Shown here in pieces: positions 1 to 11,597 of a stretch of 11,597 nt of DNA. This DNA is from a virus (Duplodnaviria; Heunggongvirae; Uroviricota; Caudoviricetes). Position numbers and translations under genes: made by a program. Location: the IMG/VR virus record IMGVR_UViG_638341087_000009, positions 1-11,597 of that record; one strand, given 5' to 3'. The notes beneath the pieces are model-generated. The model ran no database searches. It was not told the DNA's origin and was given only the letters and a program-made list of their open reading frames with translations. Position 1 is the first letter of the stretch. Each line of letters starts with the position of its first letter.

Positions 1-478
1 ACAGAGAATCCACCCATAACACTGTTTTTGGTTTTAACTGTTCCGCGTGCGCTGAGCCGCATTCACCGCATCACAAAATTCACTTTAAAAAGGGCGGCAG
101 AGCAGCCACGGAGTAAAACTGATACCGCCAAACGTCACCAGAAAATTGATAACAGAGGGCGTTGCAGCGGGGTTGTCACTTAAGCGTATGGTCAACCTGA
201 CAACCCGGTGTCCTCAACGGGGAAGGAATAACCCCGCCATACTTACCGCCGCGCCATTTCGCGGAGTGCCACAACCGGAAGCGCACGGTCGACGAAAATT
301 TAACGACAGGCTATCTATGAACCAGCTACCTCGCCGTGCGCTTTCGCGTTATGGTCTGACTTTTCAGGGAAATATCCTTTCAGTAAACTGTCAGTGCCGG
401 ATGCTCACCCGTGTCCGGCGCACGTACTCCACCTCACCCGTGGAGAACTCCTTAATCACCAACCCTCAGGAGGGTGAA

Positions 479-754
479 ATGTCGACTGAAAATGATGAAA
501 TCATTAACTCCCTGATACGCCAAATTAATAATTTTGATAAAGCATTGCAGCATGCTGCGGCGCGTAGTGATATAACTCTTTTAGCAATTTCATTTCTTGC
601 ATCTGTTATGGATAAAAATGAAGTCGTACGACAGAGTCTTGTTGATTATATCGACTCGCTTCAACCCGGCACTTTCAATCATGAGAGCTTCAATCATGAG
701 AAAGAGCATGTTAAGTCTGTAATTAATTCTCTTATTTTGAATCAAAAGAATTAA
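479..754 (+). CDS. Hypothetical small protein (91 aa), AT-rich insert (moron-like) in the early-left region
   Basis: ATG at 479 preceded by AGGAGGG (466-472, 6-nt spacing). Visibly lower GC than flanks. In-frame 15-bp tandem duplication (674-686 / 689-701, encoding FNHES/FNHEK). The upstream part of the 146..754 track ORF is Arg/Pro-rich, GC-rich and has no SD, so the start was moved to 479. No family recognised. Confidence 0.5.
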   Translation: MSTENDEIINSLIRQINNFDKALQHAAARSDITLLAISFLASVMDKNEVVRQSLVDYIDSLQPGTFNHESFNHEKEHVKSVINSLILNQKN

Positions 755-1052
755 TGCTTTTTGTTGCAAAGTAATTTTCAAGGGGTTCTATTCGAATCCC
801 TTTCTTTTTCATTAACAAGCCAAACCCCTTATCAATGATGTCCATTAGATCCAGGAAGTATTTTTCATGTAAATCCTGGTTATCAGAGAGCTGCTTCTCT
901 TCGTACAGACCGATAAAGGCACGACGCACGTTACCGGATATAGTATCGATGGTTTCTTTTTCTACGGTACTCAGGTCAAGAGTCGCCAGTTGGGAACGAA
1001 CTATATTCGCTGCCATTTCCTGGAATTGCATTGGTAAATCTTTAAATTCCAT
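732..1052 (-). CDS. Hypothetical protein (106 aa), last gene of the leftward early operon
   Basis: ORF with GAGG 6 nt upstream of ATG (complement of 1050-1052). Its 3' end overlaps the 479..754 gene convergently by 23 nt. No family recognised. Confidence 0.5.
   Translation of the reverse strand: MEFKDLPMQFQEMAANIVRSQLATLDLSTVEKETIDTISGNVRRAFIGLYEEKQLSDNQDLHEKYFLDLMDIIDKGFGLLMKKKGIRIEPLENYFATKSINSFDSK
780..809 (+). terminator. Candidate intrinsic terminator downstream of the 479..754 gene
   Basis: Hairpin 782-788 / 794-800 (GGGGTTC / GAATCCC, one G-U pair, 5-nt loop) followed by TTTCTTTTT (801-809). It lies inside the 3' end of the convergent 732..1052 ORF. Confidence 0.35.
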
Positions 1053-1074
1053 TATTAGCCTCGTTGGTTAGCTA

Positions 1075-1293
1075 TTAACGCGGGTATGTAATCATTCTGG
1101 CAATGCTTAATGCCGCTGCTTTTTCCAGATTGGTGATATCCTGCTCCAGAGCGGACAGATTTTCAGCCTGCTTAGCCCTGGCTTCATTAGCCCATTTCAG
1201 ATCCTGCGCTGCATTAATTTTCTGGCGCATCCACTCATAAAGTTCATCATCGGTATAGTCTGGCGAGATGATGACGGGTTCTCGTTTCTGCAT
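1075..1293 (-). CDS. Hypothetical small coiled-coil-like protein (72 aa)
   Basis: ORF with GAGGAA 5 nt upstream of ATG (complement of 1291-1293). Charged, helical-looking sequence; 22-nt gap to the next gene downstream. Confidence 0.55.
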   Translation of the reverse strand: MQKREPVIISPDYTDDELYEWMRQKINAAQDLKWANEARAKQAENLSALEQDITNLEKAAALSIARMITYPR

Positions 1294-1322
1294 ACTGATT
1301 CCTCGCGGTGCTGCTTCGCTTA

Positions 1323-1451
1323 TCAGCCGTTAGATTTTGCCGAGCTGGAAAGCGCCTGTTTAAACTCACTGAAGCTGAGAGCTTCTTCGCCTTCGGCAAG
1401 GCCTTCGAAGTATTCTTCGTAAGCCTTTTCCATGATTGTGTCGAAATCCAT
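1323..1451 (-). CDS. Small acidic protein (42 aa), not in the supplied ORF track
   Basis: Hand translation of the minus strand gives MDFDTIMEKAYEEYFEGLAEGEEALSFSEFKQALSSSAKSNG. AGGTGA lies 6 nt upstream; the start sits 1 nt after the stop of the upstream 80-aa gene. The two listed ORFs covering this interval (1247..1456 -, 1308..1505 +) look like frame shadows. Confidence 0.45.
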   Translation of the reverse strand: MDFDTIMEKAYEEYFEGLAEGEEALSFSEFKQALSSSAKSNG

Positions 1452-1452
1452 A

Positions 1453-1695
1453 TCACTCACCTGAGTTTCTTTCCAGCCAGCGACGGGCACCATTTTCGGT
1501 TTTAAACGTTTTGCTTTTGGTATACGTCATCGCGGTGAATGTGCCGTCCTGGTTGGGAAACACGCCGTACACCAGAGATTCATTGTTGCCAAGATCGATA
1601 GTATCCATGCTGACCTCATTTCCCCTTAACGCCGGGGTAGCGGAACTAAAAAACTGCTGCGCTGTTATATAAAGTGTTCCCGCCGTCATGTTCAT
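1453..1695 (-). CDS. Hypothetical protein (80 aa), first gene of the leftward early operon
   Basis: ORF with GAGGCG 4 nt upstream of ATG; sits about 85 nt downstream of the pL-like promoter. Not Arg-rich, so not obviously N-like. An internal Met would give a 50-aa product. Confidence 0.5.
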   Translation of the reverse strand: MNMTAGTLYITAQQFFSSATPALRGNEVSMDTIDLGNNESLVYGVFPNQDGTFTAMTYTKSKTFKTENGARRWLERNSGE

Positions 1696-1787
1696 ACGCC
1701 TCGGGCTGGCTACTTAACCCCTGACCACTGCCGGGTAACTCGAGGTATTGCCCTGCGTTCTGTGGGGCGGGGTGGGTTGGTGAGCGC

Positions 1788-1817
1788 ATCATAAAACACA
1801 TAAAATGTGTTAGTCAA
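1788..1817 (-). promoter_or_regulatory. pL-like sigma70 promoter for the leftward early operon
   Basis: Minus strand reads TTGACT (complement of 1812-1817), 18-bp spacer, TATGAT (complement of 1788-1793). Read directly from the sequence. Confidence 0.5.
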
Positions 1818-1831
1818 CACAAAAAAAGTGT
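1795..1831. promoter_or_regulatory. Two operator-like palindromes (ACACA-N5-TGTGT type) inside the pL-like promoter
   Basis: Site A 1795-1811 AACACA-TAAAA-TGTGTT, a perfect 17-bp palindrome in the promoter spacer. Site B 1817-1831 ACACA-AAAAA-AGTGT, overlapping the -35. Centres are 21 bp apart (two helical turns). The same motif recurs at 2849-2865. Confidence 0.5.
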
Positions 1832-1840
1832 GCGCAAGAA

Positions 1841-1872
1841 TAAAAAAACTCCCATTCAAGAGGTGATGGGAG
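1841..1872 (-). terminator. Intrinsic terminator ending the repressor/toxin-antitoxin transcript
   Basis: Stem 1849-1855 CTCCCAT / 1866-1872 ATGGGAG, followed on the minus strand by a 7-nt U tract (plus-strand A run 1842-1848). Immediately downstream of the ParE-like stop. Confidence 0.6.
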
Positions 1873-1883
1873 GTGGTTGATTA

Positions 1884-2171
1884 TTAACCGTTACCAGGAT
1901 ATTGCTGACGAGCATGTATCACGCTTACAATTTCAATGCTTGAAGTCGCTACCCTGTATAGGATTATGTAGTTAGGGTGGGTCACAATTTCTCTCAATCC
2001 AGAAACCCGTTCGCTTGGCGGGTATAGATACGGATGCTCAGATAGGGGCAGCACCGATGTTTCAATGCGTATTTTTAGTCTGCGCGCTGCCGGAGGGTTT
2101 TTTTTAGCAATGTAAGTTATAATCTGACTTAAATCATCGCGAGCAGACGGTAACCATAAAACGGGCAGCAT
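1884..2171 (-). CDS. parE: ParE/RelE-family type II toxin (95 aa)
   Basis: MLPVLWLPSARDDLSQIITYIAKKNPPAARR...YIILYRVATSSIEIVSVIHARQ fits the ParE pattern (L.W...A..DL..I..YIA...P.AA ... Y.I.YRV......I..V.HARQ). The start overlaps the upstream antitoxin stop (TAATG). The longer track ORF (136 aa) has an implausible Arg/Lys-rich N-terminal extension. Confidence 0.85.
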   Translation of the reverse strand: MLPVLWLPSARDDLSQIITYIAKKNPPAARRLKIRIETSVLPLSEHPYLYPPSERVSGLREIVTHPNYIILYRVATSSIEIVSVIHARQQYPGNG

Positions 2172-2362
2172 TACACGCTCCCGTTTTCCATGGCAATTTG
2201 ATTGATGATTTTTTCCATTTTTGCCATTACTTCGTCGTGCGGTATTGCTGGTCGTGGATCTGCAAGGCTTGCTGCAACCTTGGCGCGCAACCATTCGTTG
2301 TAACTGTTTTCTTGCTCGATAGTTTCAAATTCTGAAACTATTGGCGAAAGAACTGTGCTCAT
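2171..2362 (-). CDS. Cognate antitoxin (63 aa), ParD-like by context
   Basis: MSTVLSPIVSEFETIEQENSYNEWLRAKVAASLADPRPAIPHDEVMAKMEKIINQIAMENGSV. GAGAGG lies 7 nt upstream of the ATG; it is translationally coupled to parE. Assignment as antitoxin is strong; the exact family is less certain. Confidence 0.65.
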   Translation of the reverse strand: MSTVLSPIVSEFETIEQENSYNEWLRAKVAASLADPRPAIPHDEVMAKMEKIINQIAMENGSV

Positions 2363-2390
2363 AGTATGCCTCTCTGTCGTATGGTTGTAA

Positions 2391-2789
2391 TTATGCTCGA
2401 CGTCCTTTTTGGGCGGCGAGCCATCTTGCAACTGTGCGATCCATTGATTCTTTTTTGTCTTTCATGTCTTTAAGCATTTGTTCTTGCTCCTCTTCTGGGA
2501 AAGCCCCAAATGTTTGAAGCAAATCTCTCTGGCGCGGTCCTATTTTCATTGTATCAGGTACTACAACCTGTTCATCCTCGCTCGGAGGAAGCATGAACCA
2601 AAAAATAGGCCGAGCAGTTATTTGTGAAAGTCGATCTAAATTGTCAGGATTTGGACTAACCAAGCCTGCAGACCATCGCTGCACTGTTTGTTGCGACACT
2701 CCAACTAATTTCCCAAGCTCCGCCTGACTCCAGCCTGTTTCAGACAAGAGTTTCTTTATTCTATATGCAGTAATCTCGAGTGTTTTCAT
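2391..2789 (-). CDS. racR: Prophage repressor, RacR-like (XRE-family HTH), 132 aa from the proposed start
   Basis: HTH motif ...GWSQAELGKLVGVSQQTVQRWSAG... near the N-terminus. Start chosen at MKTLEIT (complement of 2787-2789); a TAGAAT -10 lies about 7 nt upstream, suggesting a near-leaderless mRNA like lambda cI from pRM. The alternative upstream start (2879) has no SD and would run through the operator region. Confidence 0.75.
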   Translation of the reverse strand: MKTLEITAYRIKKLLSETGWSQAELGKLVGVSQQTVQRWSAGLVSPNPDNLDRLSQITARPIFWFMLPPSEDEQVVVPDTMKIGPRQRDLLQTFGAFPEEEQEQMLKDMKDKKESMDRTVARWLAAQKGRRA

Positions 2790-2796
2790 AGTAACA

Positions 2797-2869
2797 ATTC
2801 TACTCAAAAAACGAGTAATGCGCGACACACGAAAATCGGGTTTACATATACACATTTTTTGTGTAATCT
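2797..2869. promoter_or_regulatory. Immunity switch region: divergent promoters and operator palindromes
   Basis: Leftward -10 TAGAAT (complement of 2797-2802) with a poor -35. Rightward TTTACA (2841-2846) with a -10-like TGTAAT/TAATCT (2862-2869). Palindrome TACACA-TTTTT-TGTGTA at 2849-2865 has the same half-sites as the pL operators. A second, different palindrome TACTC-N7-GAGTA sits at 2801-2817. Confidence 0.5.
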
Positions 2870-2895
2870 CCAGTCGCATGATGGAGGTACAAATA

Positions 2896-3168
2896 ATGAA
2901 TGATCATGTTAAGAAAAGGGTCGCGGGAAAATTTTCACAACGAGAACTGGCTATGTTAATGAGCACGAAACAACAAAGCGTATCTCGTTGGTTCAACTCT
3001 AAGTTCCCTGCATCAAGGGTGCTTCACTTGTGTCAATTGATGCAGTGGGAGGTTACTCCACACGAACTCCGACCAGACATTTACCCTAACCCAACCGACG
3101 GTTTACCCGTTGGATGTAAGGCTAACACATCAAATGCACCGGAGTTGATTCATGAAAATCAAGCATGA
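2896..3168 (+). CDS. ydaS: YdaS-like Cro/HTH protein (90 aa)
   Basis: GGAGG (2883-2887) 8 nt before ATG 2896. HTH-like ...FSQRELAMLMSTKQQSVSRW.... Divergent from the repressor, as in the Rac racR-ydaS-ydaT arrangement. The track ORF from 2818 is an upstream extension through the operator region. Confidence 0.7.
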   Translation: MNDHVKKRVAGKFSQRELAMLMSTKQQSVSRWFNSKFPASRVLHLCQLMQWEVTPHELRPDIYPNPTDGLPVGCKANTSNAPELIHENQA

Positions 3169-3577
3169 ACACATCCGCATGGCGATGAATGCCTGGGCGC
3201 ATCCGGACGGCGAGAAAGTACCGGCTGCGAAAATTACCAAAGCGTATTTCGAACTGGGTATGACGTTCCCGGAACTGTATGACGACAGCCATCCGGAAGC
3301 CCTGGCTCGCAATACCCAGAAAATTTTCCGCTGGGTAGAGAAAGACACTCCTGATGCGGTTAAAAAAATTCAGGCGTTGTTACCAGCTATCGAAAAAGCA
3401 ATGCCACCTCTGCTGGTGGCCCGAATGCGCAGCCATAGCTCAGCCTATTTTCGGGAACTGGTGGAGACGCGGGAACGACTGGTGAGAGACGCTGATGATT
3501 TTGTCGCAGTGGCGATCGCTGGTTTCAACCAGATGAATCGTGGTGGCCCTGCAGGAAATATTGTGGCTGTGCATTGA
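3152..3577 (+). CDS. ydaT: YdaT-like protein (141 aa)
   Basis: ATG 3152 with GGAG 7 nt upstream; overlaps the ydaS 3' end by 17 nt. Sequence MKIKHEHIRMAMNAWAHPDGEKVPAAKITKAYFELGMTF... and the synteny recall Rac prophage YdaT. Confidence 0.7.
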   Translation: MKIKHEHIRMAMNAWAHPDGEKVPAAKITKAYFELGMTFPELYDDSHPEALARNTQKIFRWVEKDTPDAVKKIQALLPAIEKAMPPLLVARMRSHSSAYFRELVETRERLVRDADDFVAVAIAGFNQMNRGGPAGNIVAVH

Positions 3578-3648
3578 CTCGCAATATTCATACCGGATCA
3601 CTTCCGGCAATTTGTGAGTAAAAAGATTCGGTATCAGAAGAGGTGAGT

Positions 3649-4686
3649 ATGGCTAACGCCTGGCTCAGATTATGGCATGACATGCCAAATGATCCTAAGT
3701 GGCGAACAATTTCCAGGGTGTCAGGACAGCCAATCGCAACAGTGATGGCTGTGTATATCCACCTTCTGGTGAGCGCGTCACGAAATGTCACGACATGTCA
3801 CGGCGTGTCACTACGTGGTCACATTGATGTCACGACGGAAGATTTAGCAAGTGCGCTTGATGTGACGGAAGACGTAATTGATTCAATTTTGCATGCAATG
3901 CAGGGGCGGGTTCTGGATGGTGACCTTATTTCCGGATGGGAAAAACGTCAGGTGCTGAAAGAGGACAATGGTAACGTTTCGCAAACGGCAAAATCCCCGG
4001 CAGAGCGCAAGAGAGCGCAGCGGGAGCGCGAAAAGCTGCGGAAATATGATGCTGATTGTCACGATGAGTCACGACGTGTCACGCATCTGTCACGACAAGT
4101 CACGACAGATAAAGATACAGATACAGAATTAAACCCCACACATAACGCGCGCATGCGCGAGAGTGCTCCAACCGGTGAGTCGAATGGTGCGTCGTTGCAG
4201 ACAGCCGAACCTGAATACCTGGACGGCCTGAGCGAACCGATCGGGAAATTTTCGATGACCACTGTCTGGCAGCCGTCGCCGGATTTTCGACAACGGGCAG
4301 CAGTGTGGGGTATGGCTCTGCCTGAGCCGGAATTTACACCTGCTGAGCTTGCCGCATTCCGGGATTACTGGATGGCGGAGGGGAAGGTTTTCACGCAGGT
4401 TCAGTGGGAGCAGAAATTTGCCCGCCACGTGCAGCACGTCAGGGCACAGGTAAAACCAGTCAGCAAGGGGGTAAGCCATGCAGCATCAGGTGGCACGGCA
4501 TCACGGGCAGTTCAGGAAATCCGGGCAGCACGCGAACAGTGGGAACGTGACAACGGATTTATCAGCAACGGAAACGGCCTGGAAGCTGTGGGAGCTTATG
4601 GGGGAGGTGTATTCGAACCGCTGGACACAGAAGAACGGGGCCGCACCTTCGAAGCTCTGGATTGCCCAGATTGGCGCGATGACTGA
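3649..4686 (+). CDS. Replication initiator (lambda O-like role); 3' boundary uncertain
   Basis: ATG 3649 with GAGGTG 4-9 nt upstream. The N-terminus MANAWLRLWHDMPNDPKWR looks like a phage replisome-organiser N-domain. The gene contains two iteron clusters in its low-complexity linker, as the lambda origin lies inside O. The last 209 nt overlap the P-like gene in another frame. Confidence 0.65.
   Translation: MANAWLRLWHDMPNDPKWRTISRVSGQPIATVMAVYIHLLVSASRNVTTCHGVSLRGHIDVTTEDLASALDVTEDVIDSILHAMQGRVLDGDLISGWEKRQVLKEDNGNVSQTAKSPAERKRAQREREKLRKYDADCHDESRRVTHLSRQVTTDKDTDTELNPTHNARMRESAPTGESNGASLQTAEPEYLDGLSEPIGKFSMTTVWQPSPDFRQRAAVWGMALPEPEFTPAELAAFRDYWMAEGKVFTQVQWEQKFARHVQHVRAQVKPVSKGVSHAASGGTASRAVQEIRAAREQWERDNGFISNGNGLEAVGAYGGGVFEPLDTEERGRTFEALDCPDWRDD
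3777..3834. repeat. Iteron cluster 1: six GTCAC(G) repeats at 10-11 bp spacing
   Basis: GTCACG at 3777, 3787, 3797 and 3829; GTCACT at 3807; GTCAC at 3818. Units resemble tGTCACGnnn. Confidence 0.75.
4058..4135. repeat. Iteron cluster 2 (five GTCACG repeats) with an adjacent AT-rich patch: candidate origin
   Basis: GTCACG at 4058, 4068, 4078, 4089 and 4099 (10-11 bp phasing), followed by AGATAAAGATACAGATACAGAATTAAACC (4107-4135). Confidence 0.7.
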
Positions 4687-5140
4687 ACAGCAAATCCGGC
4701 TGGTCTGCCGTCAGTGCATGGACCGCTGCCGGGCGGGTGAAACGTGGCCCCCGGACCTTGCTGAGTTTGTTGCACTGATTTCGGAGAGTGGGGCAAATCC
4801 ATTTGGTCTTACGGTGGATGCAGTGATGGAAGAGTACCGGCGCTGGCGCAATGAATCCTGGCGATACGACGGGAGTGATAAATACCCGTGGCCACAGCCT
4901 GTGCTGTACCACATCTGCCTCGAAATGCGTACCAGAGGGATTGAGCGCCAGATGACGCAGGGTGAGTTAAAACGACTTGCGGAACGGCAACTGACGAAAT
5001 GGGCAAAGCATGTTGGTAACGGGATGAGTGTTCCGCCAGTGCGACGACAACTGGAAGGGGCGAAACACCCGCAAGGGCCAACGCCAATTGAACGGCTGAA
5101 ACAGGAATACGAACGCCGGAAGGCAGCTGGTTTTATTTGA
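4478..5140 (+). CDS. Lambda P-like replication protein (DnaB helicase loader), 220 aa
   Basis: Segment ...DLAEFVALISE...MEEYRRWRNESWRYDGSDKYPWPQPVLYHICLEMRTRG...ELKRLAERQL... matches from memory lambda P (...FVAWCRE...YEYCRKRGLYPDAESYPWKSNAHYWLVTNLYQNMRANALTDAELRRKAADEL...). AAGGGGG (4465-4471) lies 6 nt before ATG 4478. Alternative in-frame starts are ATG 4598 and ATG 4679, the latter overlapping the O-like stop as ATGACTGA. Confidence 0.7.
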   Translation: MQHQVARHHGQFRKSGQHANSGNVTTDLSATETAWKLWELMGEVYSNRWTQKNGAAPSKLWIAQIGAMTEQQIRLVCRQCMDRCRAGETWPPDLAEFVALISESGANPFGLTVDAVMEEYRRWRNESWRYDGSDKYPWPQPVLYHICLEMRTRGIERQMTQGELKRLAERQLTKWAKHVGNGMSVPPVRRQLEGAKHPQGPTPIERLKQEYERRKAAGFI

Positions 5141-5173
5141 ATCTGAGAAACGATTTTGTCGGAGGAAATATTA

Positions 5174-5848
5174 ATGGAAACCGTATCTGACGCACTGAAA
5201 GCACTGAAAAAAGCCTCTTCACATGTGGTGGCAGCTCGCCTTGGAATCAGTCGTGAAGAGGCTGTCAACGAGCTGTGGGAACTCAAAAGAAAAGGCGTCG
5301 TTGATAAAACTGGTCACACCTGGTTTCTGGCTGGCGAAGGTGAATCCCGGGTAACCGAAGAGCGGCCAGTAAAATCTGAAGCACAGGATATGCTGACCGG
5401 GGAGGTCGAACAAAAAGTTACCGCAGACATGATGATTGAGTTTATCGGTCAGGATGGGGCTAAAACGTGTGAGGAACTGGCGGGTAAGTTCGGTGTCAGT
5501 ACTCGCAAGGTTGCTTCCACGCTGGCGGTGGTAACCGCAACGGGGCGGCTGGCACGCGTTAATCAGAACGGTAAATTTCGTTACTGCATGCCGGGCGATA
5601 ATTTACCAGCAGAGCCGAAAGCCGCGCTGGTAACGGAAAGTGATGGTAAGGCCTTTCCTCAGCCAGCAGGTGCTGCGTTACCAGTCCGGGAAGCCGCAAC
5701 ACAGGAAGAAATTAAAACAGAAACTGTGGCGGACATTGTGCAGCCGTTGCCATCGTTTACCGAAACGCAAGCAGATGAGCTGATTTTTCCGTCCCTTCGC
5801 AGGGCAAACCTGGCGCTGCGCAGGGCGAAAAGTGATGTTCAGAAGTGA
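5174..5848 (+). CDS. Hypothetical protein (224 aa) with two winged-helix-like repeats
   Basis: GGAGGA (5161-5166) 7 nt before ATG 5174. Two similar modules of about 50 aa (ALKALKKASSHVVAARLGISREEAVNELWELKRKGVVDKTG and MIEFIGQDGAKTCEELAGKFGVSTRKVASTLAVVTATGRLARVNQNG). Function unknown. Confidence 0.6.
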   Translation: METVSDALKALKKASSHVVAARLGISREEAVNELWELKRKGVVDKTGHTWFLAGEGESRVTEERPVKSEAQDMLTGEVEQKVTADMMIEFIGQDGAKTCEELAGKFGVSTRKVASTLAVVTATGRLARVNQNGKFRYCMPGDNLPAEPKAALVTESDGKAFPQPAGAALPVREAATQEEIKTETVADIVQPLPSFTETQADELIFPSLRRANLALRRAKSDVQK

Positions 5849-5959
5849 GAGCGAGTCTGCGCCGCGCTGCGGGAGCTGAACAAGCACCGGGATATTGTTC
5901 GACAGATTACTGATTCTTCCCGCCGTGTTGTATCGGAAAAGTGATTGCCGGAGGCGCTT

Positions 5960-6382
5960 ATGGCAAAAGTATTTACACAAGAAGAGCGGGAAAAAATTAA
6001 AGGGCAGGTTGTTGAACTAGTACGCCGGAGTGGGCGCGAGACGTTACGGCAACTGGAAGCCAAGACAGGTGCGACAAGATATCTGATGAGCGTTCTCGCC
6101 AGAGAGCTGGTTGCCAGTGGCGATGTATACAACTCTGGTTACGGGTTATTCCCGTCTGAACAGGCTCGTAAGGACTGGCAAAATGCCCGCAAAAAACTAT
6201 CTAGGGCAAAGGTGAAGAAACCATCTGTGGTTGATCCGGATCTTATCTGGTCATTACCAGACGGAGAAATACGCCGCTACGACAGGCGTCTGAACATAAT
6301 CTGTAGCGAGTGCCGGAAGAGCGAAGCTATGCAGCGTGTACTGGCTTTCTATCAGGGTAATTTTCAGAAGGTGCTGTTGTGA
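5960..6382 (+). CDS. Hypothetical protein (140 aa), nin-like region
   Basis: GGAGG (5950-5954) 5 nt before ATG 5960. Charged N-terminus with a C-terminal CSEC motif. No family recognised. Confidence 0.55.
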   Translation: MAKVFTQEEREKIKGQVVELVRRSGRETLRQLEAKTGATRYLMSVLARELVASGDVYNSGYGLFPSEQARKDWQNARKKLSRAKVKKPSVVDPDLIWSLPDGEIRRYDRRLNIICSECRKSEAMQRVLAFYQGNFQKVLL

Positions 6383-6487
6383 GCCAAATTAACAATCGGA
6401 ACTTCGTGAAGAGAAAGCATAATCCAAATCTGAATAATTAAGTTCAGCACTGTAAATAAAATTTAATCCTTAACTGGAGGTATATTT

Positions 6488-6700
6488 ATGTTAAATACAC
6501 AGAAAGCCATTAATGCGGAAAAATATAACGAGTGGGCAAGAAAATTCTCTGAGCAGATTTTTAAAATTACTGGCGATGAGAATGTGGCAAAAAATGAATT
6601 AGAACCGTGGACACCTGAAGGAAACGCACCAAATTATTGCTGGTGGGAGGTTGATCCGGTTGATGCTGCAAATGAAGCCATGAGTTACCACAACGATTAA
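6488..6700 (+). CDS. Hypothetical small protein (70 aa), AT-rich
   Basis: GGAGG (6476-6480) 7 nt before the ATG, in an AT-rich island. No family recognised. Confidence 0.55.
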   Translation: MLNTQKAINAEKYNEWARKFSEQIFKITGDENVAKNELEPWTPEGNAPNYCWWEVDPVDAANEAMSYHND

Positions 6701-6704
6701 TGTC

Positions 6705-6735
6705 GGGAGGCCGCCCGAAAGGGCGGTAAGAAATG
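6705..6735 (+). promoter_or_regulatory. SD-hairpin-start codon arrangement upstream of the membrane-protein gene
   Basis: GGGAGG (6705-6710), then hairpin CCGCCC-GAAA-GGGCGG (6711-6726, GAAA tetraloop), then ATG 6733. The hairpin sits between the SD and the start codon. Confidence 0.35.
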
Positions 6736-6951
6736 ACTACATTATTCAGAAAAGAATATCCGCAAAAAAGTAGGGCGACAGAATTTTTGTTTCTCATTCT
6801 GTTTATCGTATTGATGATACCGATATCCCCTCTAATTTTTGTCTGGGCAATCGGGAAAATAATTGAGCCAGTTACTGAATTGTATACCGACGTTGTATGG
6901 GCGTCGTTCAACACACTGCACAATAAAATTAATCCGTATAAGGAAAACTGA
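6733..6951 (+). CDS. Small predicted membrane protein (72 aa)
   Basis: Hydrophobic stretch EFLFLILFIVLMIPISPLIFVWAIG consistent with a transmembrane helix. Its stop overlaps the next start as TGATATG. Confidence 0.5.
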   Translation: MTTLFRKEYPQKSRATEFLFLILFIVLMIPISPLIFVWAIGKIIEPVTELYTDVVWASFNTLHNKINPYKEN

Positions 6952-6952
6952 T

Positions 6953-7216
6953 ATGGCAACTTTGACAAAAAAAGAACGGGCATGGTTAAACGAATTACAG
7001 GAAGTTCTTGATCGCTGTCCATCACCGAAAAAAATTGGCTTTTACACCATTGGCGATAAAAGCATTTACCTGTATGACCTACGCCGCATGGATGAAATCA
7101 TGGAGGCTCTTGATAATCGTTCGTCGATGGATTGGTGTGTTGCTGTTCATGATATGAATGCAGGGTTTGATGAAAAGATTTTGTTCCCCTCATCAGTTGA
7201 AAGCACTGCGGGTTAA
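6953..7216 (+). CDS. Hypothetical small protein (87 aa)
   Basis: ATG 6953 two nt after the upstream stop, with AAGGAAAA upstream. The track ORF from 6863 is an upstream extension overlapping the preceding gene. Confidence 0.5.
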   Translation: MATLTKKERAWLNELQEVLDRCPSPKKIGFYTIGDKSIYLYDLRRMDEIMEALDNRSSMDWCVAVHDMNAGFDEKILFPSSVESTAG

Positions 7217-7226
7217 GGAGTAACAC

Positions 7227-8096
7227 ATGACCACTATTACCAAAGAACGTATTGAATTGTTCATTAAAAATCCGGTTGAAAACGGGCTTACCCGTGGTGA
7301 ACAAATGGAACTGGCACGGATTGCGCTGGCATCGCTGGAAGCAGAGCCGGTGGCAAAGATTATAGCTCATTACCCATTAGGGGTTGACGTAGGCAAACAA
7401 AAATTCGTACAGGCCATTAGAGAGCTTCCTGACTTTGGCGGATATCTATTTGCCGCCCCTCCAGCGCCGATAGTGCCGGAAGAAATGTATTGGCAGGATG
7501 CGCCAGTTGAAGGCAGCAGCAAAGCGGCTGCATACGCTACAGGCTGGAACGATTGCCGCGAAGCCATGCTTCAGTCCGGAAACTTTCGGGAAAATAAAGA
7601 TTCGTCAACCAATAATTTTCGGAAAATCCCGGAAGCGTCAACCAGCTCTCCGGTAACTCCGGCTCTTCTGCCTGGTGGTTTCACCATTGAGGAGGCGAAG
7701 GAATTACATGAAGACCTGGTACGCAGCCACATAAGCAAGGCCTTAAGTGGCGAAAAGATGAAAAAGAAAGATCGCGATGCTGATTTGCGCTGGATTCATG
7801 GCGTTATAGTTCAGGCAGCGTGGTTTGTAAAAGCATCACTGGAGCAGAATGCACTATCGGGCAACTATCCGGTAACTCCGGATAGTTGGATAAGCTGTAG
7901 TGAGCGAATGCCGGATACCAAAACAGCCGTTCTTGTTGCCGTGGAGTTTGACAGGAAAGGTGACTGGCGAATGAAATGGGCGACTTACATCCCGGGGCAT
8001 CCTGACGCTAATGATGGGTGGATAATTCCTGGTGCGTCGTGGAAACCGTCACACTGGATGCCGCTACCAGAACCGCCGCAGGAGGTGCGCCAATGA
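7227..8096 (+). CDS. DUF551 domain-containing phage protein (289 aa)
   Basis: AAGGAG (7215-7220) 6 nt before the ATG. C-terminus ...WISCSERMPDTKTAVLVAV...GWIIPGASWKPSHWMPLPEPP matches the DUF551 signature recalled from memory (WxxxxExxP ... HWMPLPEPP). The roughly 220-aa N-terminal region is unassigned. Confidence 0.7.
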   Translation: MTTITKERIELFIKNPVENGLTRGEQMELARIALASLEAEPVAKIIAHYPLGVDVGKQKFVQAIRELPDFGGYLFAAPPAPIVPEEMYWQDAPVEGSSKAAAYATGWNDCREAMLQSGNFRENKDSSTNNFRKIPEASTSSPVTPALLPGGFTIEEAKELHEDLVRSHISKALSGEKMKKKDRDADLRWIHGVIVQAAWFVKASLEQNALSGNYPVTPDSWISCSERMPDTKTAVLVAVEFDRKGDWRMKWATYIPGHPDANDGWIIPGASWKPSHWMPLPEPPQEVRQ

Positions 8097-8176
8097 ACTG
8101 GCCTGAAGCATTTGCAATTACAGGCGTTGCTATGGCTATCGCTTTTTTAGTATATGTTATTTGTCGGTGGGGGTAA
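8093..8176 (+). CDS. Unannotated tiny hydrophobic ORF (27 aa): MNWPEAFAITGVAMAIAFLVYVICRWG
   Basis: ATG overlaps the upstream stop (ATGA); GGAGGTG (8081-8087) lies 5 nt upstream. One predicted transmembrane segment. Too short for the ORF track. Confidence 0.35.
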   Translation: MNWPEAFAITGVAMAIAFLVYVICRWG

Positions 8177-8211
8177 AAACGTTCGCCGGGATTAACACCA
8201 AAGGAGGGAAT

Positions 8212-8316
8212 ATGTCGGATGATATCTCACTGGCAATGGAAGGTGCGCTGGCTGTTATTGCTGTTGTGGGCGTTTACTGCCTGGTTGTGTTTTTGATGGA
8301 TCGACTAGGGAACTAA
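8212..8316 (+). CDS. Unannotated small membrane peptide (34 aa): MSDDISLAMEGALAVIAVVGVYCLVVFLMDRLGN
   Basis: Strong SD AAGGAGGG (8201-8208) 3-4 nt before the ATG. One transmembrane segment with a charged C-terminus. Confidence 0.45.
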   Translation: MSDDISLAMEGALAVIAVVGVYCLVVFLMDRLGN

Positions 8317-8324
8317 ATTCATTA

Positions 8325-8346
8325 CGATATGGGAATTCCCATATCG
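8325..8346. repeat. 22-bp perfect palindrome CGATATGGGAATTCCCATATCG
   Basis: Exact inverted repeat with no spacer, centred on GAATTC, between the small-peptide gene and the hok promoter. Confidence 0.8.
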
Positions 8347-8358
8347 GGTAAAAACGGT

Positions 8359-8386
8359 TTGCGGTAAAGCGAGAGTTAAGTAGAAT
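8359..8386 (+). promoter_or_regulatory. Candidate promoter for the hok/mok mRNA
   Basis: TTGCGG (8359-8364), 16-bp spacer, TAGAAT (8381-8386). Predicted start near 8393 gives an mRNA of about 420 nt to the terminator at 8812, similar to known hok mRNAs. Confidence 0.4.
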
Positions 8387-8440
8387 TGCTGCGGGCGCTT
8401 GAGGCTGTCTGCCTCGGGCATGCCACCGTAAGGCAGACAG

Positions 8441-8512
8441 AGAAAAGCCCCAGTTAACATTACGCGTCCGGCAAGACGCTTAACATTAATCTGAGGCCAT
8501 ATCTATGCTCTA
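8441..8512 (-). ncRNA. Candidate Sok-like antisense RNA (about 70 nt)
   Basis: Weak minus-strand promoter (TTGCCT, complement of 8543-8548; 17-bp spacer; TAACCT, complement of 8520-8525). Transcript would be antisense to the mok-frame SD and ATG (8493-8507). It would end in a minus-strand hairpin (arms 8491-8497 / 8447-8453, inner stem 8464-8468 / 8475-8479) followed by UUUUCU. Structure-based inference only. Confidence 0.3.
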
Positions 8513-8561
8513 CACACGTAGGTTAGCCTCTTACGTGCCGAAAGGCAAGGAGAAGCAGGCT

Positions 8562-8717
8562 ATGAAGCAGCAAAAGGCGATGCTAATCGCCCTGATCGTC
8601 ATCTGTTTAACCGTCATAGTGACGGCACTGGTAACGAGGAAAGACCTCTGCGAGGTACGAATCCGAACCGGCCAGACGGAGGTCGCTGTCTTCACAGCTT
8701 ACGAACCTGAGGAGTAA
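8562..8717 (+). CDS. hokD: Hok/Gef-family type I toxin (51 aa), closest to HokD/RelF; in-frame Mok-like extension from ATG 8505
   Basis: MKQQKAMLIALIVICLTVIVTALVTRKDLCEVRIRTGQTEVAVFTAYEPEE is the Hok family signature (transmembrane helix plus ...TRK.LCE..IR.G..EVAAF.AYE). AAGGAG (8547-8552) lies 9 nt before ATG 8562. The upstream in-frame ATG 8505 with its own GAGG gives a 70-aa form, as in chromosomal mok genes. Confidence 0.85.
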   Translation: MKQQKAMLIALIVICLTVIVTALVTRKDLCEVRIRTGQTEVAVFTAYEPEE

Positions 8718-8785
8718 GAGACCCGGCGGGGGAGAAATCCCTCGCCACCGCTGATGTGTCAGGCATCCTCAACGCACCCGCACTT

Positions 8786-8812
8786 AACCCGCTTCGGCGG
8801 GTTTTGTTTTTT
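8786..8812 (+). terminator. Intrinsic terminator of the hok transcript
   Basis: Stem AACCCGC / GCGGGTT with TTCG loop (8786-8803), followed by TTGTTTTTT. Confidence 0.65.
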
Positions 8813-8884
8813 CTGGTCGTTCTGGTTTACAATCCATCCGTCAGCCTGAACAACTGGCACCTGCTGCGCCAGCAGAGAAAACAG

Positions 8885-9163
8885 ATGGCGCACGATACCA
8901 AATTTTACAATTCGGATAACTCTGCCGCCCCTGCCAGCAGGCACGGGCGGCGTTCCCGCACTTTCAAATCTGACTGGTTCCAGCATCCCCCATGCACTGA
9001 AGAACAGGCCGAGTGGCTAATTCAGTGCTACCGCAGACACGGATACGAGATTAAGAAAGCCCTCAGCCTCGATTATCGTCACTGGATAATCTCCGTCAGG
9101 CTTCCTTACTCCGAACGACCACCGCGTCCGTCCCGCACATTCCAGCAACGCATCTGGAGGTAA
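8885..9163 (+). CDS. Hypothetical protein (92 aa), Rem-like by position
   Basis: ATG 8885; the track ORF from 8756 would run through the terminator. The order hok, small protein, DUF968 protein, Q matches my recollection of Qin prophage hokD-rem-ydfU-quuQ. Weak SD. Confidence 0.5.
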   Translation: MAHDTKFYNSDNSAAPASRHGRRSRTFKSDWFQHPPCTEEQAEWLIQCYRRHGYEIKKALSLDYRHWIISVRLPYSERPPRPSRTFQQRIWR

Positions 9164-9164
9164 C

Positions 9165-10211
9165 GTGCGGGTATTACTTCGACCTGTTCTGGTACCGGAA
9201 CTCGGGCTGGTGATCGTTAAGCCGGGCCGTGAATCCATGCCGGTATTCCACAATACCCGGGTACTGGTGGAGCCGGAACCGAAAAGCATGCGTAATCTGC
9301 CGTCCGGGGTCGTTCCTGCCGTTCGCCAGCCGCTGGCGGAGGATAAATCATTACTGCCATTTTTCAGCGACGAACGAGTGATTCGTGCTGCTGGTGGCGC
9401 TGGCGCATTGTCTGACTGGCTGTTGCGCCATATTAAATCCTGCCAGTGGCCACACGGCGATTATCATCACAGCGAAACCGTCATTCACCGTTATGGTACC
9501 GGCGCAATGGTGTTGTGCTGGCACTGCGACAACCAGCTGCGCGACCAGACCTCCGAATCACTGGAACATCTGGCTCAACAAAACCTGGCAGCCTGGATGA
9601 TTGACGTCATACGCCATGCAATGAATGGCTCGCAGGAGCGTGAATTATCTCTGGCTGAATTATCCTGGTGGGCGGTCCGCAATCAGGTGGCGGACGCGCT
9701 ACCGGAAGCGGTATTACGTCGTTCGCTGGGGTTGCGTGCGGAAAAAATCCGCTCAATGTACCGTGAAAGCGACATCGTACCGGGAGAGCAGACCGCCACC
9801 AGCATACTGAAGCAGCGCACAAAAAATCTTGCGCCGCTGCCTCACGCTCACCAGCAAAAACCGCCACAGGAAAAGACGGTGGTCAGCATTGCCGTTGATC
9901 CTGAGTCTCCGGAATCTTTCATGAAACGACCTAAACGTCGCCGCTGGGTTAACGAGAAATACACGCACTGGGTGAAGACACAGCCGTGTGCGTGTTGTGG
10001 TAAGCCTGCTGACGATCCGCATCACCTGATTGGTCATGGTCAGGGGGGAATGGGGACAAAATCTCACGATATTTTCACGCTACCGCTGTGTCGGGAGCAT
10101 CACAACGAGCTTCATGCGGATCCGCTGGCGTTCGAAGAAAAGCATGGTTCTCAGGTTGATTTAATTTTTCGTTTTCTTGATCACGCCTTTGCAACTGGCG
10201 TGCTTGGGTAA
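9165..10211 (+). CDS. ydfU: YdfU-like DUF968 protein (348 aa) with a Cys/His metal-binding-like C-terminus
   Basis: GTG start 4 nt after GGAGG (9156-9160). C-terminal motif ...QPCACCGKPADDPHHLIGHGQGGMGTKSHDIFTLPLCREHHNELH.... Length is close to K-12 YdfU (about 349 aa, recalled from memory). Confidence 0.7.
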   Translation: MRVLLRPVLVPELGLVIVKPGRESMPVFHNTRVLVEPEPKSMRNLPSGVVPAVRQPLAEDKSLLPFFSDERVIRAAGGAGALSDWLLRHIKSCQWPHGDYHHSETVIHRYGTGAMVLCWHCDNQLRDQTSESLEHLAQQNLAAWMIDVIRHAMNGSQERELSLAELSWWAVRNQVADALPEAVLRRSLGLRAEKIRSMYRESDIVPGEQTATSILKQRTKNLAPLPHAHQQKPPQEKTVVSIAVDPESPESFMKRPKRRRWVNEKYTHWVKTQPCACCGKPADDPHHLIGHGQGGMGTKSHDIFTLPLCREHHNELHADPLAFEEKHGSQVDLIFRFLDHAFATGVLG

Positions 10212-10223
10212 AAGAGGTGACTG

Positions 10224-10583
10224 ATGCTCATAGATTTGGTTTTACCTTACCCGCCGACGGTGAACACTTACTGGCGACGCCGTGGCAGCACATATTTTGT
10301 ATCAAAAGCCGGGGAGCGTTATCGCCGGGCTGTGGCGCTTATTGTTCGCCAGCAGCGACTGAAATTAAGCCTGTCCGGACGGCTGGCAATAAAAATTATT
10401 GCAGAGCCACCGGATAAGCGTCGTCGTGACCTGGACAATATTCTGAAAGCACCGCTGGATGCGCTGACGCATGCGGGAGTGCTCATTGATGACGAGCAGT
10501 TTGATGAAATCAATATTGTACGTGGTCAGCCAGTATCTGGTGGACGGCTGGGTGTGAAGATTTACAAAATTGAGAGTGAGTGA
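10224..10583 (+). CDS. rusA: RusA-family Holliday junction resolvase (119 aa)
   Basis: ...LPYPPTVNTYWRRRG...PPDKRRRDLDNILKAPLDALTHAGVLIDDEQ...GGRLGVKIY... matches RusA motifs recalled from memory (PPSNNRYY..., PDRRRRDLDN..K...DALT.AG...DD, GGRL). GAGGTG lies 4 nt before the ATG. Confidence 0.85.
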   Translation: MLIDLVLPYPPTVNTYWRRRGSTYFVSKAGERYRRAVALIVRQQRLKLSLSGRLAIKIIAEPPDKRRRDLDNILKAPLDALTHAGVLIDDEQFDEINIVRGQPVSGGRLGVKIYKIESE

Positions 10584-10591
10584 GCGTAAAT

Positions 10592-11122
10592 ATGATATAT
10601 CCGGAAATTACAGGCAAAAGCGGCGAACATTTACGCCTGAACACGCTGGAAGCAGTCTGGATCCAGGGGAAATTACGGATGTGGGGGCGGTGGTCGTATA
10701 TCGGTGGGGGTAAATCCGGAAATATGTTTAACCGGTTACTGGTTTCGAAAAAGCTGACGAAAACAGCAGTTAATGAGGTTTTACGCAGCATGAAGAAATC
10801 CGGGCTGGAAAAACCGGAACTTGAGGCATTTTTTCGGGATATGACCAGAGGGAAGCAGAAGAGCTGGTTGTCACATTGTACAGACACAGAGGCGTTGATT
10901 ATTGATCGCGTTATCAGTGAGGTGCTTGGGGAATATCCCGGGCTAATCAATATTCTCCGGCAAAGGTACGAAGGACGGGGAATGAGTAAGAGAAAAATGG
11001 CAGAATGTTTAAATCGTACTCACCCGGAATGGTGTTTCAGCACATGTGAGAAACGTATTGCAGGTTGGTTAGCCGTGGCTGAACACATGCTTTATGTACC
11101 TATGCACGATTCATTTCGATAA
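10592..11122 (+). CDS. Q-like late-gene antiterminator (176 aa); assignment mainly positional
   Basis: Immediately follows rusA (start 8 nt after its stop) and precedes a short terminator-bounded region, as Q does in lambdoid phages. Sequence similarity to Q families is not verified. Confidence 0.5.
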   Translation: MIYPEITGKSGEHLRLNTLEAVWIQGKLRMWGRWSYIGGGKSGNMFNRLLVSKKLTKTAVNEVLRSMKKSGLEKPELEAFFRDMTRGKQKSWLSHCTDTEALIIDRVISEVLGEYPGLINILRQRYEGRGMSKRKMAECLNRTHPEWCFSTCEKRIAGWLAVAEHMLYVPMHDSFR

Positions 11123-11129
11123 AAAAAGC

Positions 11130-11158
11130 TTGCTTTTTTACGCAGAAACAGCTTGAAT
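11130..11158 (+). promoter_or_regulatory. Candidate pR'-like late promoter
   Basis: TTGCTT (11130-11135), 17-bp spacer, TTGAAT (11153-11158), 8 nt after the Q-like stop. Weak match; placement is by analogy. Confidence 0.2.
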
Positions 11159-11216
11159 TCCTGTAAGCTTCGCAAAGCTGTATCGCGAGGCGAAATGCAA
11201 GTTTTTTCGCACAAGG

Positions 11217-11241
11217 AAGCCACCGGAAGGTGGTTTTTTTT
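11217..11241 (+). terminator. Intrinsic terminator (tR'-like)
   Basis: Stem GCCACC / GGTGG(T) with GGAA loop (11219-11233), followed by an 8-nt T run (11234-11241). Confidence 0.65.
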
Positions 11242-11364
11242 GTGTCCGTAATATACAGCAGCGCAATAAATTCGCTGGTGGTTATTAATACCGTTCTTTC
11301 AGCTTGCTGGCTTTTTCGACAAGAGTTATTGGTGTGTCACGTTAACCGAAAAAGGGAAAAAGAC

Positions 11365-11562
11365 ATGCTGAAACAGCAGGATATGACCGAAACCGCCAGA
11401 GTGGTGTTTAATGAATTAAGCGTTACCGAACCGGCGACAGTCGGGGAGGTTGCGCAGAATACTTACCTTTCACGCGAACGCTGCCAGTTAATACTGACCC
11501 AGCTTGTTATGGCGGGTCTGGCAGACTATCAGTGCGGTTGTTACAGACGCCTTCAGTCCTGA
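11365..11562 (+). CDS. Hypothetical small protein (65 aa), first gene after the tR'-like terminator
   Basis: ATG 11365 with AAGGG 8 nt upstream. The track ORF from 11230 would begin inside the terminator. Not hydrophobic, so not a holin. Confidence 0.45.
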   Translation: MLKQQDMTETARVVFNELSVTEPATVGEVAQNTYLSRERCQLILTQLVMAGLADYQCGCYRRLQS

Positions 11563-11575
11563 AGGCTTTTTATTT
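11549..11575 (+). terminator. Candidate intrinsic terminator overlapping the stop codon of the 65-aa gene
   Basis: Stem GCCTTCA / TGAAGGC with GTCC loop (11549-11566), followed by TTTTTATTT. Confidence 0.5.
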
Positions 11576-11597
11576 GTGGTGAATGGGCGGCTGGTGG

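Follow-up and report, generated by a model that had tools for sequence, protein, structure and literature searches.

Where does a lambdoid prophage begin its vegetative replication, and can the start site lie inside the gene of its own initiator? The question is raised by an 11,597-nucleotide (nt) stretch of a Caudoviricetes record (IMGVR_UViG_638341087_000009, positions 1 to 11,597; hereafter the window), which is the early region of a lambdoid (Rac/Qin-like) Escherichia coli prophage. An earlier note on this DNA, made from the letters alone, had proposed a candidate origin of the lambda kind within the initiator gene, consisting of iterons followed by an AT-rich patch. Every computational test that we ran supports this proposal, with initiator binding and origin firing as its predicted consequences, and we consider the segment 3777–4160 to be very probably the vegetative replication origin of this Rac/lambda-like prophage, located inside the gene of its own initiator.

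Phased iterons threaded through a coding sequence

Two clusters of the DNA word GTCAC(G), here called arrays A and B, are found exactly where the earlier note had placed its eleven copies with 10–11 base pair (bp) phasing inside the initiator coding sequence. The + strand copies of array A start at 3777, 3787, 3797, 3807, 3818, and 3829, and those of array B at 4058, 4068, 4078, 4089, and 4099; all lie within the open reading frame (ORF) 3643/3649–4686. Nine of the eleven direct copies read GTCACG, the exceptions being GTCACT at 3807 and GTCACA at 3818. We further noted a twelfth, inverted copy downstream of array A (3862–3866), which was absent from the earlier note. Another inverted copy, at 3920, was dropped from the element, as homologues lack it.

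The total number of GTCAC words in the window is unremarkable (26 on both strands versus 18.4 expected), and the signal resides in their clustering. About 0.046 copies are expected per 58 nt, giving a probability of 1e-11 for at least six copies in array A, while the probability of at least five copies in 47 nt, as in array B, is 6e-10. Tandem Repeats Finder detected both arrays with a period of 10 and array B additionally with a period of 21.

The copies occur in all three codon phases (2, 0, 1, 2, 1, and 0 in array A; 1, 2, 0, 2, and 0 in array B), and the same word is translated variously as SR, VT, CH, SL, or GH. An origin of the arrays as peptide repeats was rejected, because a 10/11-bp period is not a multiple of three and the copies fall in every phase. 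Synonymous recoding gave 5000 versions of the ORF, generated either by local codon usage or by permuting the ORF's own synonymous codons; these carried 0.8–1.2 copies per array, and the ORF total of 11 was reached in none of them. One DNA word threaded through all three frames of a coding sequence is a compact example of overlapping codes.

Conservation of the repeats at synonymous sites

For comparison, we used 39 related loci from one-genome-per-species collections, whose initiators share 44–88% protein identity and whose hosts include Escherichia, Shigella, Serratia, Rahnella, Pantoea, Pseudomonas, Entomomonas, Gilvimarinus, Bordetella, Acidovorax, Aquitalea, Chromobacterium, Castellaniella, and Sphingomonas, among others. 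The codon alignment comprises the members with GTCAC-type repeats, and the entropy test was carried out on 21 non-redundant homologues from gamma- and betaproteobacteria, with Escherichia, Serratia, Rahnella, Pseudomonas, Bordetella, Acidovorax, and Chromobacterium among the genera covered. Comparing repeat conservation with codon conservation in homologues had been suggested as a check in the earlier note, and the outcome is clear: normalised codon entropy is 0.10 in the 14 iteron codons versus 0.81 in 64 other codons with conserved amino acids (Mann–Whitney p = 9e-9). In array A, the fixed codons are GTC for valine, ACG for threonine, and GGT for glycine (24/24 each); in array B, they are TCA for serine and GTC for valine (23/23 each), as well as CAC for histidine (21/21, or 23/23 in one of our counts). 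The valine codon within the inverted copy is GTG in all 21 homologues. Invariant residues outside the repeats show codon entropies of 2.2 bits (L8), 2.4 bits (R7), and 1.8 bits (P13). Together, the three codon phases, the failure of recoded sequences to hold more than about one copy per array, and the frozen synonymous sites in homologues identify the repeats as a DNA-level signal, upholding the earlier preference for DNA-level over protein-level constraint.

The arrangement of the repeats is conserved as well. Loci of the GTCAC type feature an array A of 3–6 copies (4 being typical), the inverted copy, a segment of 211–247 bp (319 bp in one locus), an array B of 3–6 copies, and an AT run. The segment between the arrays, about 230 bp long, is coding sequence of the winged-helix domain. 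Of the 23 GTCAC-type loci inspected for the inverted copy, 17 have it 33 nt past the final copy of array A, and array B is present in every GTCAC-type locus examined, which comprised both genome loci and unique viral loci. The AT run, written as (A/C)GATAAAGAT... or AGATAAAGATAAAGA..., closes the layout after array B: AGATAAAGAT... repeats begin 3 nt past the last B copy in all homologues, with 53–86% AT and 58–89% purine on the top strand. The presence of two clusters, which the earlier note had called unusual, is thus the conserved norm of this initiator family.

Across loci, the repeat logo consists of a 6-bp core, GTCACG, with G at position 6 in 85% and weak flanks; 92 of the intervals between copies measure 10 bp, and 28 measure 11 bp. 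Copy numbers vary even between close relatives: among 80 near-identical E. coli prophage contigs from IMG/VR, arrays A and B hold six and five copies in 60, four and five in 10, and six and four in 10. Relative to phage Tritos, the window carries a 21-bp insertion (two units, seven codons) that accounts for two extra A copies. As 10 + 11 bp amounts to 21 bp, equal to seven codons and to two helical turns, the arrays may change by two units at a time, with both reading frame and helical phase kept.

Variants of the layout were also observed. In the Erwinia phyllosphaerae locus (L025), both arrays (positions 141–180 and 411–450 relative to the ORF) are packed more densely, with overlapping GTCAC copies every 5 bp (GTCACGTCACGTCACGTGAC). 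Loci from Serratia and Pantoea (L039 and L041; ORFs 1501–2691 and 1501–2805) carry CTACG/CGTAG repeats in place of the usual array B, together with an insertion of about 100 residues past the N-domain. This insertion has a weak, below-cutoff match to a GIY-YIG-like profile (MUG113) and may represent a nuclease domain at the origin position.

Three repeat classes that follow the N-domain

More distant relatives lack GTCAC and carry other repeats in its two places. To define repeat classes de novo, we searched each locus for the most frequent 5-mer within 62 nt upstream of its AT run. This word was also enriched in region A of that locus and nearly absent from the remaining ORF. Three classes were obtained, GTCACG, GAACGC, and GTAACG, and in each of them one core serves both arrays. 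The classes are linked to subclades of the N-domain. In an example of the GAACGC class, array A reads tcGAACGCaaccGAACGCggacGAACGC, and array B comprises four to six GAACGC copies followed by CAGATACAGATACAGAT; in a GTAAC-class locus (L026), the position of the inverted copy is occupied by GTTAC, the complement of the class core. Within each class, both arrays persist across a divergence that has randomised synonymous sites elsewhere.

Other components of these loci are exchangeable. Among loci with the same N-domain and repeats, the C-terminal half of the initiator contains a DnaT domain in the window and in a Sphingomonas locus (L035) and no recognisable domain in most others. The downstream loaders include lambda P, DnaC/IstB-like ATPases, DUF977 proteins, and a DnaB-like helicase, and the upstream genes encode YdaT, a small helix-turn-helix protein, a RecA-dependent nuclease, a methylase, or proteins without assignment. 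The sole protein that consistently accompanies the repeats is the winged-helix N-domain coded around them.

Domain structure of the initiator

The initiator consists of a winged-helix N-domain (residues 1–100), a basic helix (117–134), a disordered linker (approximately 135–195), and a DnaT-like domain for binding single-stranded DNA (approximately 200–270). In an AlphaFold2 model built on 59 homologues, most of residues 11–100 have a predicted local distance difference test (pLDDT) score above 90, except residues 41–60, and the C-domain is confident too. The N-domain is predicted to adopt a winged-helix fold like the one in DnaD's N-terminal domain (NTD), as found in known origin-binding proteins. 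According to the model, array A codes for a beta-hairpin or loop of lower confidence (residues 43–62) between helices 29–45 and 63–70, inside the folded N-domain, and the inverted copy falls at the turn between helices 63–70 and 74–84. Array B and the AT patch code for residues 137–162 in the disordered linker (pLDDT < 50). The low-complexity linker of the earlier note is thus borne out for array B, but not for array A, which is part of the predicted folded DNA-binding domain.

Pfam annotation of the full initiator returned only the DnaT domain (residues 201–267), and residues 1–164 gave no Pfam match even at E ≤ 10. The PHROGs label of the protein is replication initiation protein, and a profile search of PDB sequences with the N-domain yielded no match. 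A homologue of the DnaT-like C-domain has been crystallised on dT10. The earlier note had further assumed a lambda-type pair of O and P proteins. The adjacent loader does match Phage_lambda_P; the initiator, lacking a Phage_rep_O match, is not a lambda O homologue.

In the initiators of Tritos (L003, 3049–4116) and K-12 (YdaU, ending in …PPGFRG), the C-terminal tail of the last 20–24 codons or so weakly matches the extreme C-terminus of host DnaT (NF002770, positions 156–179). The initiator of the window instead carries the core of DnaT that binds single-stranded DNA, and the piece of DnaT that was borrowed seems to differ between initiator modules.

The AT-rich patch and the sequence beyond it

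The AT-rich stretch reported after the second cluster proved real though short, spanning 4107–4133 and forming the lowest-GC stretch of the gene: the 30 nt from position 4105 contain 27% GC, the minimum of the ORF. Homologues, including those from high-GC hosts, encode this patch with nearly uniform codons, GAT for aspartate in 22/22 and AAA for lysine in 18/19, unlike aspartate elsewhere in the same genes, which is mostly GAC.

Just past the patch lies a GC-rich palindrome, CGCGCATGCGCG. Comparable palindromes are present in three other loci (L004, L010, and L035), and CCCCCC...GGGGGG inverted repeats occur in many further loci at the same offset, 40–55 nt from the start of the AT run. Since control segments of the same ORFs score similarly, an enrichment of inverted repeats after the AT patch is not established, and we do not claim a GC-rich inverted repeat as a defined origin element. 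A DNA string, AAACCCCACACATAA(A)CGCGC..., follows the AT patch (4130–4160) in the window as well as in the Serratia (L010) and Sphingomonas (L035) loci. It is read in different frames, giving NPTHNA in the window and KTPHIK or KTPHNA in the other two, which hints at a further DNA-level element.

A model for initiation and its alternatives

In lying within a linker-coding segment, array B and the AT patch match the ori-coded regions of lambda O and of pSK41 Rep (PMC7466680, PMC5703833). Very probably, array B and the AT patch constitute an origin that is bound by the N-domain. From the repeats, their selection at the DNA level, their co-variation and linkage with the N-domain, and the fold assignments, we infer the following steps of binding, melting, and helicase loading. 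Protomers of the winged-helix N-domain would bind GTCACG cores at one per helical turn, as suggested by the head-to-tail repeats at 10/11 bp, which all lie on one face of the helix. Cooperative assembly of a nucleoprotein array would follow, with five sites in B and, about 230 bp upstream, six direct sites and an inverted one in A; the resulting strain on supercoiled DNA would melt the strand-asymmetric, AT-rich (GATAAA)n patch adjoining the final copy of array B. The DnaT-like C-domain may hold the exposed single strand, and the lambda-P-like protein would deliver host DnaB to the opened origin. Array A could serve as an auxiliary site that loops to or stacks with B in a larger wrapped complex, or that tunes firing.

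Several observations weigh against an origin of this design. At about 27 nt, the AT patch is short, and its composition stands out only moderately, falling in the 3rd percentile of the window, where 3.1% of 30-nt segments have a GC content that low or lower. DnaA boxes (TTATNCACA, at most one mismatch) number 8 versus 9.6 expected, with none in the origin, which gives no sign that DnaA takes part, and no other host-factor sites were found. The amino acids coded by array A are also conserved within a class, so that protein and DNA constraint are not fully separable there, though synonymous sites favour DNA. The three iteron classes are at the same time clades, and the co-variation hence rests on few independent switches. 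Four loci (L030, L032, L038, and L143) lack array A and contain only about two degenerate copies of B type; from them, we derive array B with the AT run as the universal core and array A as a frequent accessory. Finally, no published experiment on binding, unwinding, or activity of this type of origin was found in the searchable literature.

Two arrays of a single initiator-binding repeat, one at the melting site and one distant, are known from P1 (oriR/incA), F (incB/incC), and P4 (ori/crr); the role of the second array in P1 and in F is to restrain copy number. In these replicons the arrays flank the initiator gene or are kilobases apart, whereas both arrays of the window lie in the coding sequence, about 230 bp from each other, and belong to a phage with lytic and lysogenic cycles. 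Following P1 incA and F incC, one could regard array B and the AT patch as the origin and array A as a control element that takes no part in activating it and acts instead by titrating or handcuffing the initiator or, on the transcript of the initiator itself, as an autoregulatory operator or roadblock, a reading that we take as possible but unlikely. It would explain why the few lineages without array A keep array B and the AT run, and it fits the variation of array A from four to six copies among near-identical E. coli prophages as well as the distance from the melting region, which is too large for direct contact without looping; moreover, the extra distal iterons of Stx phages are weakly bound, yet matter for replication (PMC7466680). 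A lytic lambdoid replicon, however, has no obvious need for copy-number restraint, and array A co-varies with array B and is under equally strong synonymous-site constraint. Given an origin at array B and the AT patch, we consider an activating role of array A and a controlling one about equally likely.

The repeats might also bind a protein other than the initiator, for instance an antisense-promoter activator of the cII/YdaT kind, a host factor, or a repressor, and the region would then be regulatory. Direct repeats with 10-bp phasing resemble cII-type sites, lambda cII itself binding TTGC-N6-TTGC with the same phasing inside genes; a YdaT-like gene lies just upstream, and on the minus strand, at 4082–4055, the complement of the repeats creates a weak sigma-70-like match (9/12). 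We nevertheless consider such a binder very improbable. Upstream genes differ completely among loci that keep the GTCACG arrays, hosts ranging from Escherichia to Bordetella and Acidovorax make a shared host factor with three switchable specificities unlikely, and four to six sites with an abutting AT run correspond to the anatomy of an origin rather than to that of an activator site. Promoter-like matches number 2 versus 2.7 in shuffled sequences, and a scan of 2300–5300 for promoters and terminators gave counts no higher than those of shuffles. Two of the features scanned, a promoter-like site on the minus strand of array B and terminator-like hairpins at 4134–4162, were set aside as by-products of the repeats and the palindrome. 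Even less credit is due to another cis function, such as a partition centromere or a packaging or recombination site, or to low-complexity coding repeats made by slippage. The parC site of R1 consists of two blocks of five 11-bp repeats, which two blocks of about five one-turn repeats resemble, and copy number does shift in 21-bp steps, as slippage might produce. No partition genes are found nearby, though, and the element is an integrating lambdoid prophage, while slippage leaves unexplained the frozen synonymous sites over deep divergence, the co-variation of the two arrays, and the fixed junction with the AT run; a 10/11-bp period, not being a multiple of three, also does not yield peptide repeats.

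For an origin bound by the N-domain, it can further be asked which residues read the repeat. The hairpin coded by array A (residues 44–62) and the helix turn coded by the inverted copy (residues 71–73) could be among them, so that the specificity determinant and its target would share the same nucleotides. Consistently, outside this hairpin and this turn the N-domain hardly differs between the three classes, and the canonical 'recognition' helix (residues 74–84) is variable even within a class. Conversely, any peptide coded by the repeat must co-vary with it whatever its function, the hairpin tolerates a seven-residue insertion, some lineages do without array A, and the basic helix 117–134 has class-specific residues of its own (K/V/A at 121 and Q/Y/W at 124). 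Few class-discriminating residues were found outside the iteron-coded peptides, in an alignment that is unreliable near the hairpin and with classes that are clades. On balance, we regard this idea as doubtful. If it were true, a change of the core in array A would simultaneously alter the reading peptide, providing a built-in route to concerted specificity switches between GTCACG, GAACGC, and GTAACG.

Relation to known origins

Gene O of lambda has the origin in its middle, where an AT-rich tract comes after the iterons. The DNA must be supercoiled to be unwound, and AT-rich single-stranded DNA is bound by O as well (PMC7466680). The window resembles ori-lambda and the origins of Stx phages in the position of the predicted origin in the middle of the initiator gene and in the succession of 4–6 repeats and an AT-rich tract downstream in the direction of transcription (PMC7466680). 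As in these phages, the ori-coded peptide is an interdomain linker (in the window, that coded by array B and the AT patch), a P-type loader gene comes next, and the repeat number varies between related phages. The proteins are different: in place of a Phage_rep_O domain, the initiator of the window has a DnaD/RepA_N-like N-domain and a DnaT-like C-domain. Whereas the iterons of lambda are 19-bp inverted repeats bound by dimers, those of the window are head-to-tail units of 10/11 bp with a 6-bp core (PMC7466680). Also unlike lambda, the window features a second array and an inverted copy about 230 bp upstream, in the segment coding for the folded DNA-binding domain.

A second relationship is with RepA_N replicons. 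In pSK41 Rep, a DnaD-like winged helix at the N-terminus binds four Rep boxes located centrally in rep. The central segment, coded by the ori, is a linker that can be dispensed with, and host machinery is recruited through the C-terminal domain (PMC5703833). The window shares with these replicons (pSK41 Rep and pTZ2162 RepA) a modular initiator with a DnaD-NTD-like winged helix, mid-gene repeats, a linker, and a variable C-domain. RepA_N boxes, in turn, have a semi-palindromic poly-A design (PMC7145576) that is absent from the repeats of the window. In contrast to RepA_N replicons, the window belongs to a Gram-negative lambdoid phage, has a P-like loader instead of DnaG recruitment, and carries two arrays instead of a single one. 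Its initiator has no match to Pfam RepA_N even at E ≤ 10. Judged from its organisation, the putative origin works like ori-lambda and RepA_N origins, being in sequence a member of neither family.

Close relatives of the initiator are called 'phage replisome organizer' by NCBI, a name that points to G38P of phage SPP1, whose oriL lies within gene 38. However, the corresponding profile (TIGR01714 phage_rep_org_N, PF09681) gave no hit with the initiator of the window and only E = 0.016 with that of Tritos (15.4 bits versus a cutoff of 49.8 bits). In SPP1, G38P acts as a replisome organizer that binds the origin and then hands over to the helicase loader and the helicase (PMC5615212).

The Rac prophage has a known active origin, oriJ (PMC3945230), and in K-12 it shares with the window the operon order racR-ydaS-ydaT-initiator-loader. 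At the DNA level, the 3' half of the window gene and ydaU of phage Rac-SA53 are 88% identical, the similarity being limited to this half. K-12 YdaU differs in having a DUF1376 N-domain, GATGTTCAA repeats instead of GTCACG, and a DnaC-like loader. Within K-12 ydaU (L002, NC_000913.3 1417000–1424000; 4260–4640 of that segment), GATGTTCAA-type repeats are found at 4263 and 4348, in the part coding for the N-domain, and at 4472, 4505, 4538, and 4550, with an inverted one at 4568, in the part coding for the linker. They are followed by AATAAAGATACAGATAAAGATC and CCCCCCC..GGGGG, and the AT-rich AATAAAGATACAGATAAAGAT motif is common to K-12 and the window. These repeats and the AT motif follow the plan of the window with another repeat word, and they probably represent the anatomy of oriJ.

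The principle of an origin inside an initiator gene is textbook knowledge; what provisionally appears new are the initiator family, the repeat design, the second array in the coding sequence of the DNA-binding domain, and the three co-varying classes. For this initiator family, we found no paper on GTCACG iterons, GATAAAGATAAAGAT, the (GATAAA)n tract, or an intragenic origin with two arrays, a provisional result given that older subscription literature lay outside the search. Papers on Eru-type Stx phages do not cover the replication module of the window, and among the 22 phage records with the N-domain, no origin is annotated at its gene. Defined by a 6-bp core in two phased arrays, the (GATAAA)n patch, and the three classes, origins could be annotated automatically in thousands of prophages, and replication incompatibility or cross-activation between co-resident prophages would become predictable. 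The comparison also suggests a likely anatomy for the long-known, poorly mapped oriJ of Rac. The 21-bp unit would satisfy the genetic code and helical phase together, and the family would link the lambda O paradigm of Gram-negative phages to the RepA_N/DnaD paradigm of Gram-positive plasmids.

Genomic context and distribution

The initiator gene is embedded in the order repressor, Cro-like YdaS, cII-like YdaT, initiator, P-like loader, and DUF1627 (Table 1). The loader is also labelled 'P-like helicase loader' (PHROG 109) and 'replication protein P' (RefSeq). Two RNA genes of the window, DicF and sok, are usual cargo of Qin/Rac-like prophages.

Table 1. Positions of the predicted origin elements and neighbouring genes in the window.
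Feature	Position	Strand	Remarks
Initiator (O-equivalent) gene	3649–4686	+	345 residues
Iteron array A	3777–3834	+	Six direct GTCAC(G) copies, spacing 10/10/10/11/11 bp; codons 43–62
Single inverted iteron copy	3862–3866	−	GTGAC on the + strand; 33 nt past the last array A copy
Iteron array B	4058–4104	+	Five direct GTCACG copies, spacing 10/10/11/10 bp; residues 137–152
AT-rich stretch	4107–4133	+	AGATAAAGATACAGATACAGAATTAAA; purine-rich top strand; encodes linker part DKDTDTEL; presumed DNA-unwinding element
GC-rich palindrome CGCGCATGCGCG	4148–4159		Just past the AT patch; tentatively, a possible origin boundary or structural element
Lambda-P-like helicase loader	4478–5140	+	Overlaps the end of the initiator gene; Pfam Phage_lambda_P, E = 1.3e-15
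cI-like repressor	2391–2879	−	
Cro-like YdaS	2818–3168		
cII-like YdaT	3152–3577		
DicF antisense RNA	92–143	−	Rfam, 75 bits
sok antitoxin RNA of the hok/sok module	8393–8567	+	Rfam, 114 bits

The initiator gene is widespread in E. coli: part or all of it matches 2556 of 5426 complete genomes, 658 of which contain a near-full-length copy, and it occurs in up to six places per genome. The family, of which roughly 940 members were retrieved, extends to phages and prophages of many other proteobacteria, with Pseudomonas, Aeromonas, Bordetella, and Serratia among the hosts. NCBI entries for the E. coli initiator are mostly 'partial' and come from short contigs, with some clusters holding hundreds to about 1100 sequences; draft assemblies apparently break inside the gene, presumably owing to the several related prophages per genome.

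In Pseudomonas aeruginosa, a 50.9-kb circular lambdoid phage genome is filed as a plasmid (L123, CP137943.1). Its initiator ORF (6001–6899) has the same N-domain and the same array layout, with 4 + 4 GTCACG copies and a DnaB-like helicase downstream, and is not listed as a coding sequence in the PLSDB gene table. Several Pseudomonas phage records split the initiator gene into two 'hypothetical proteins'.

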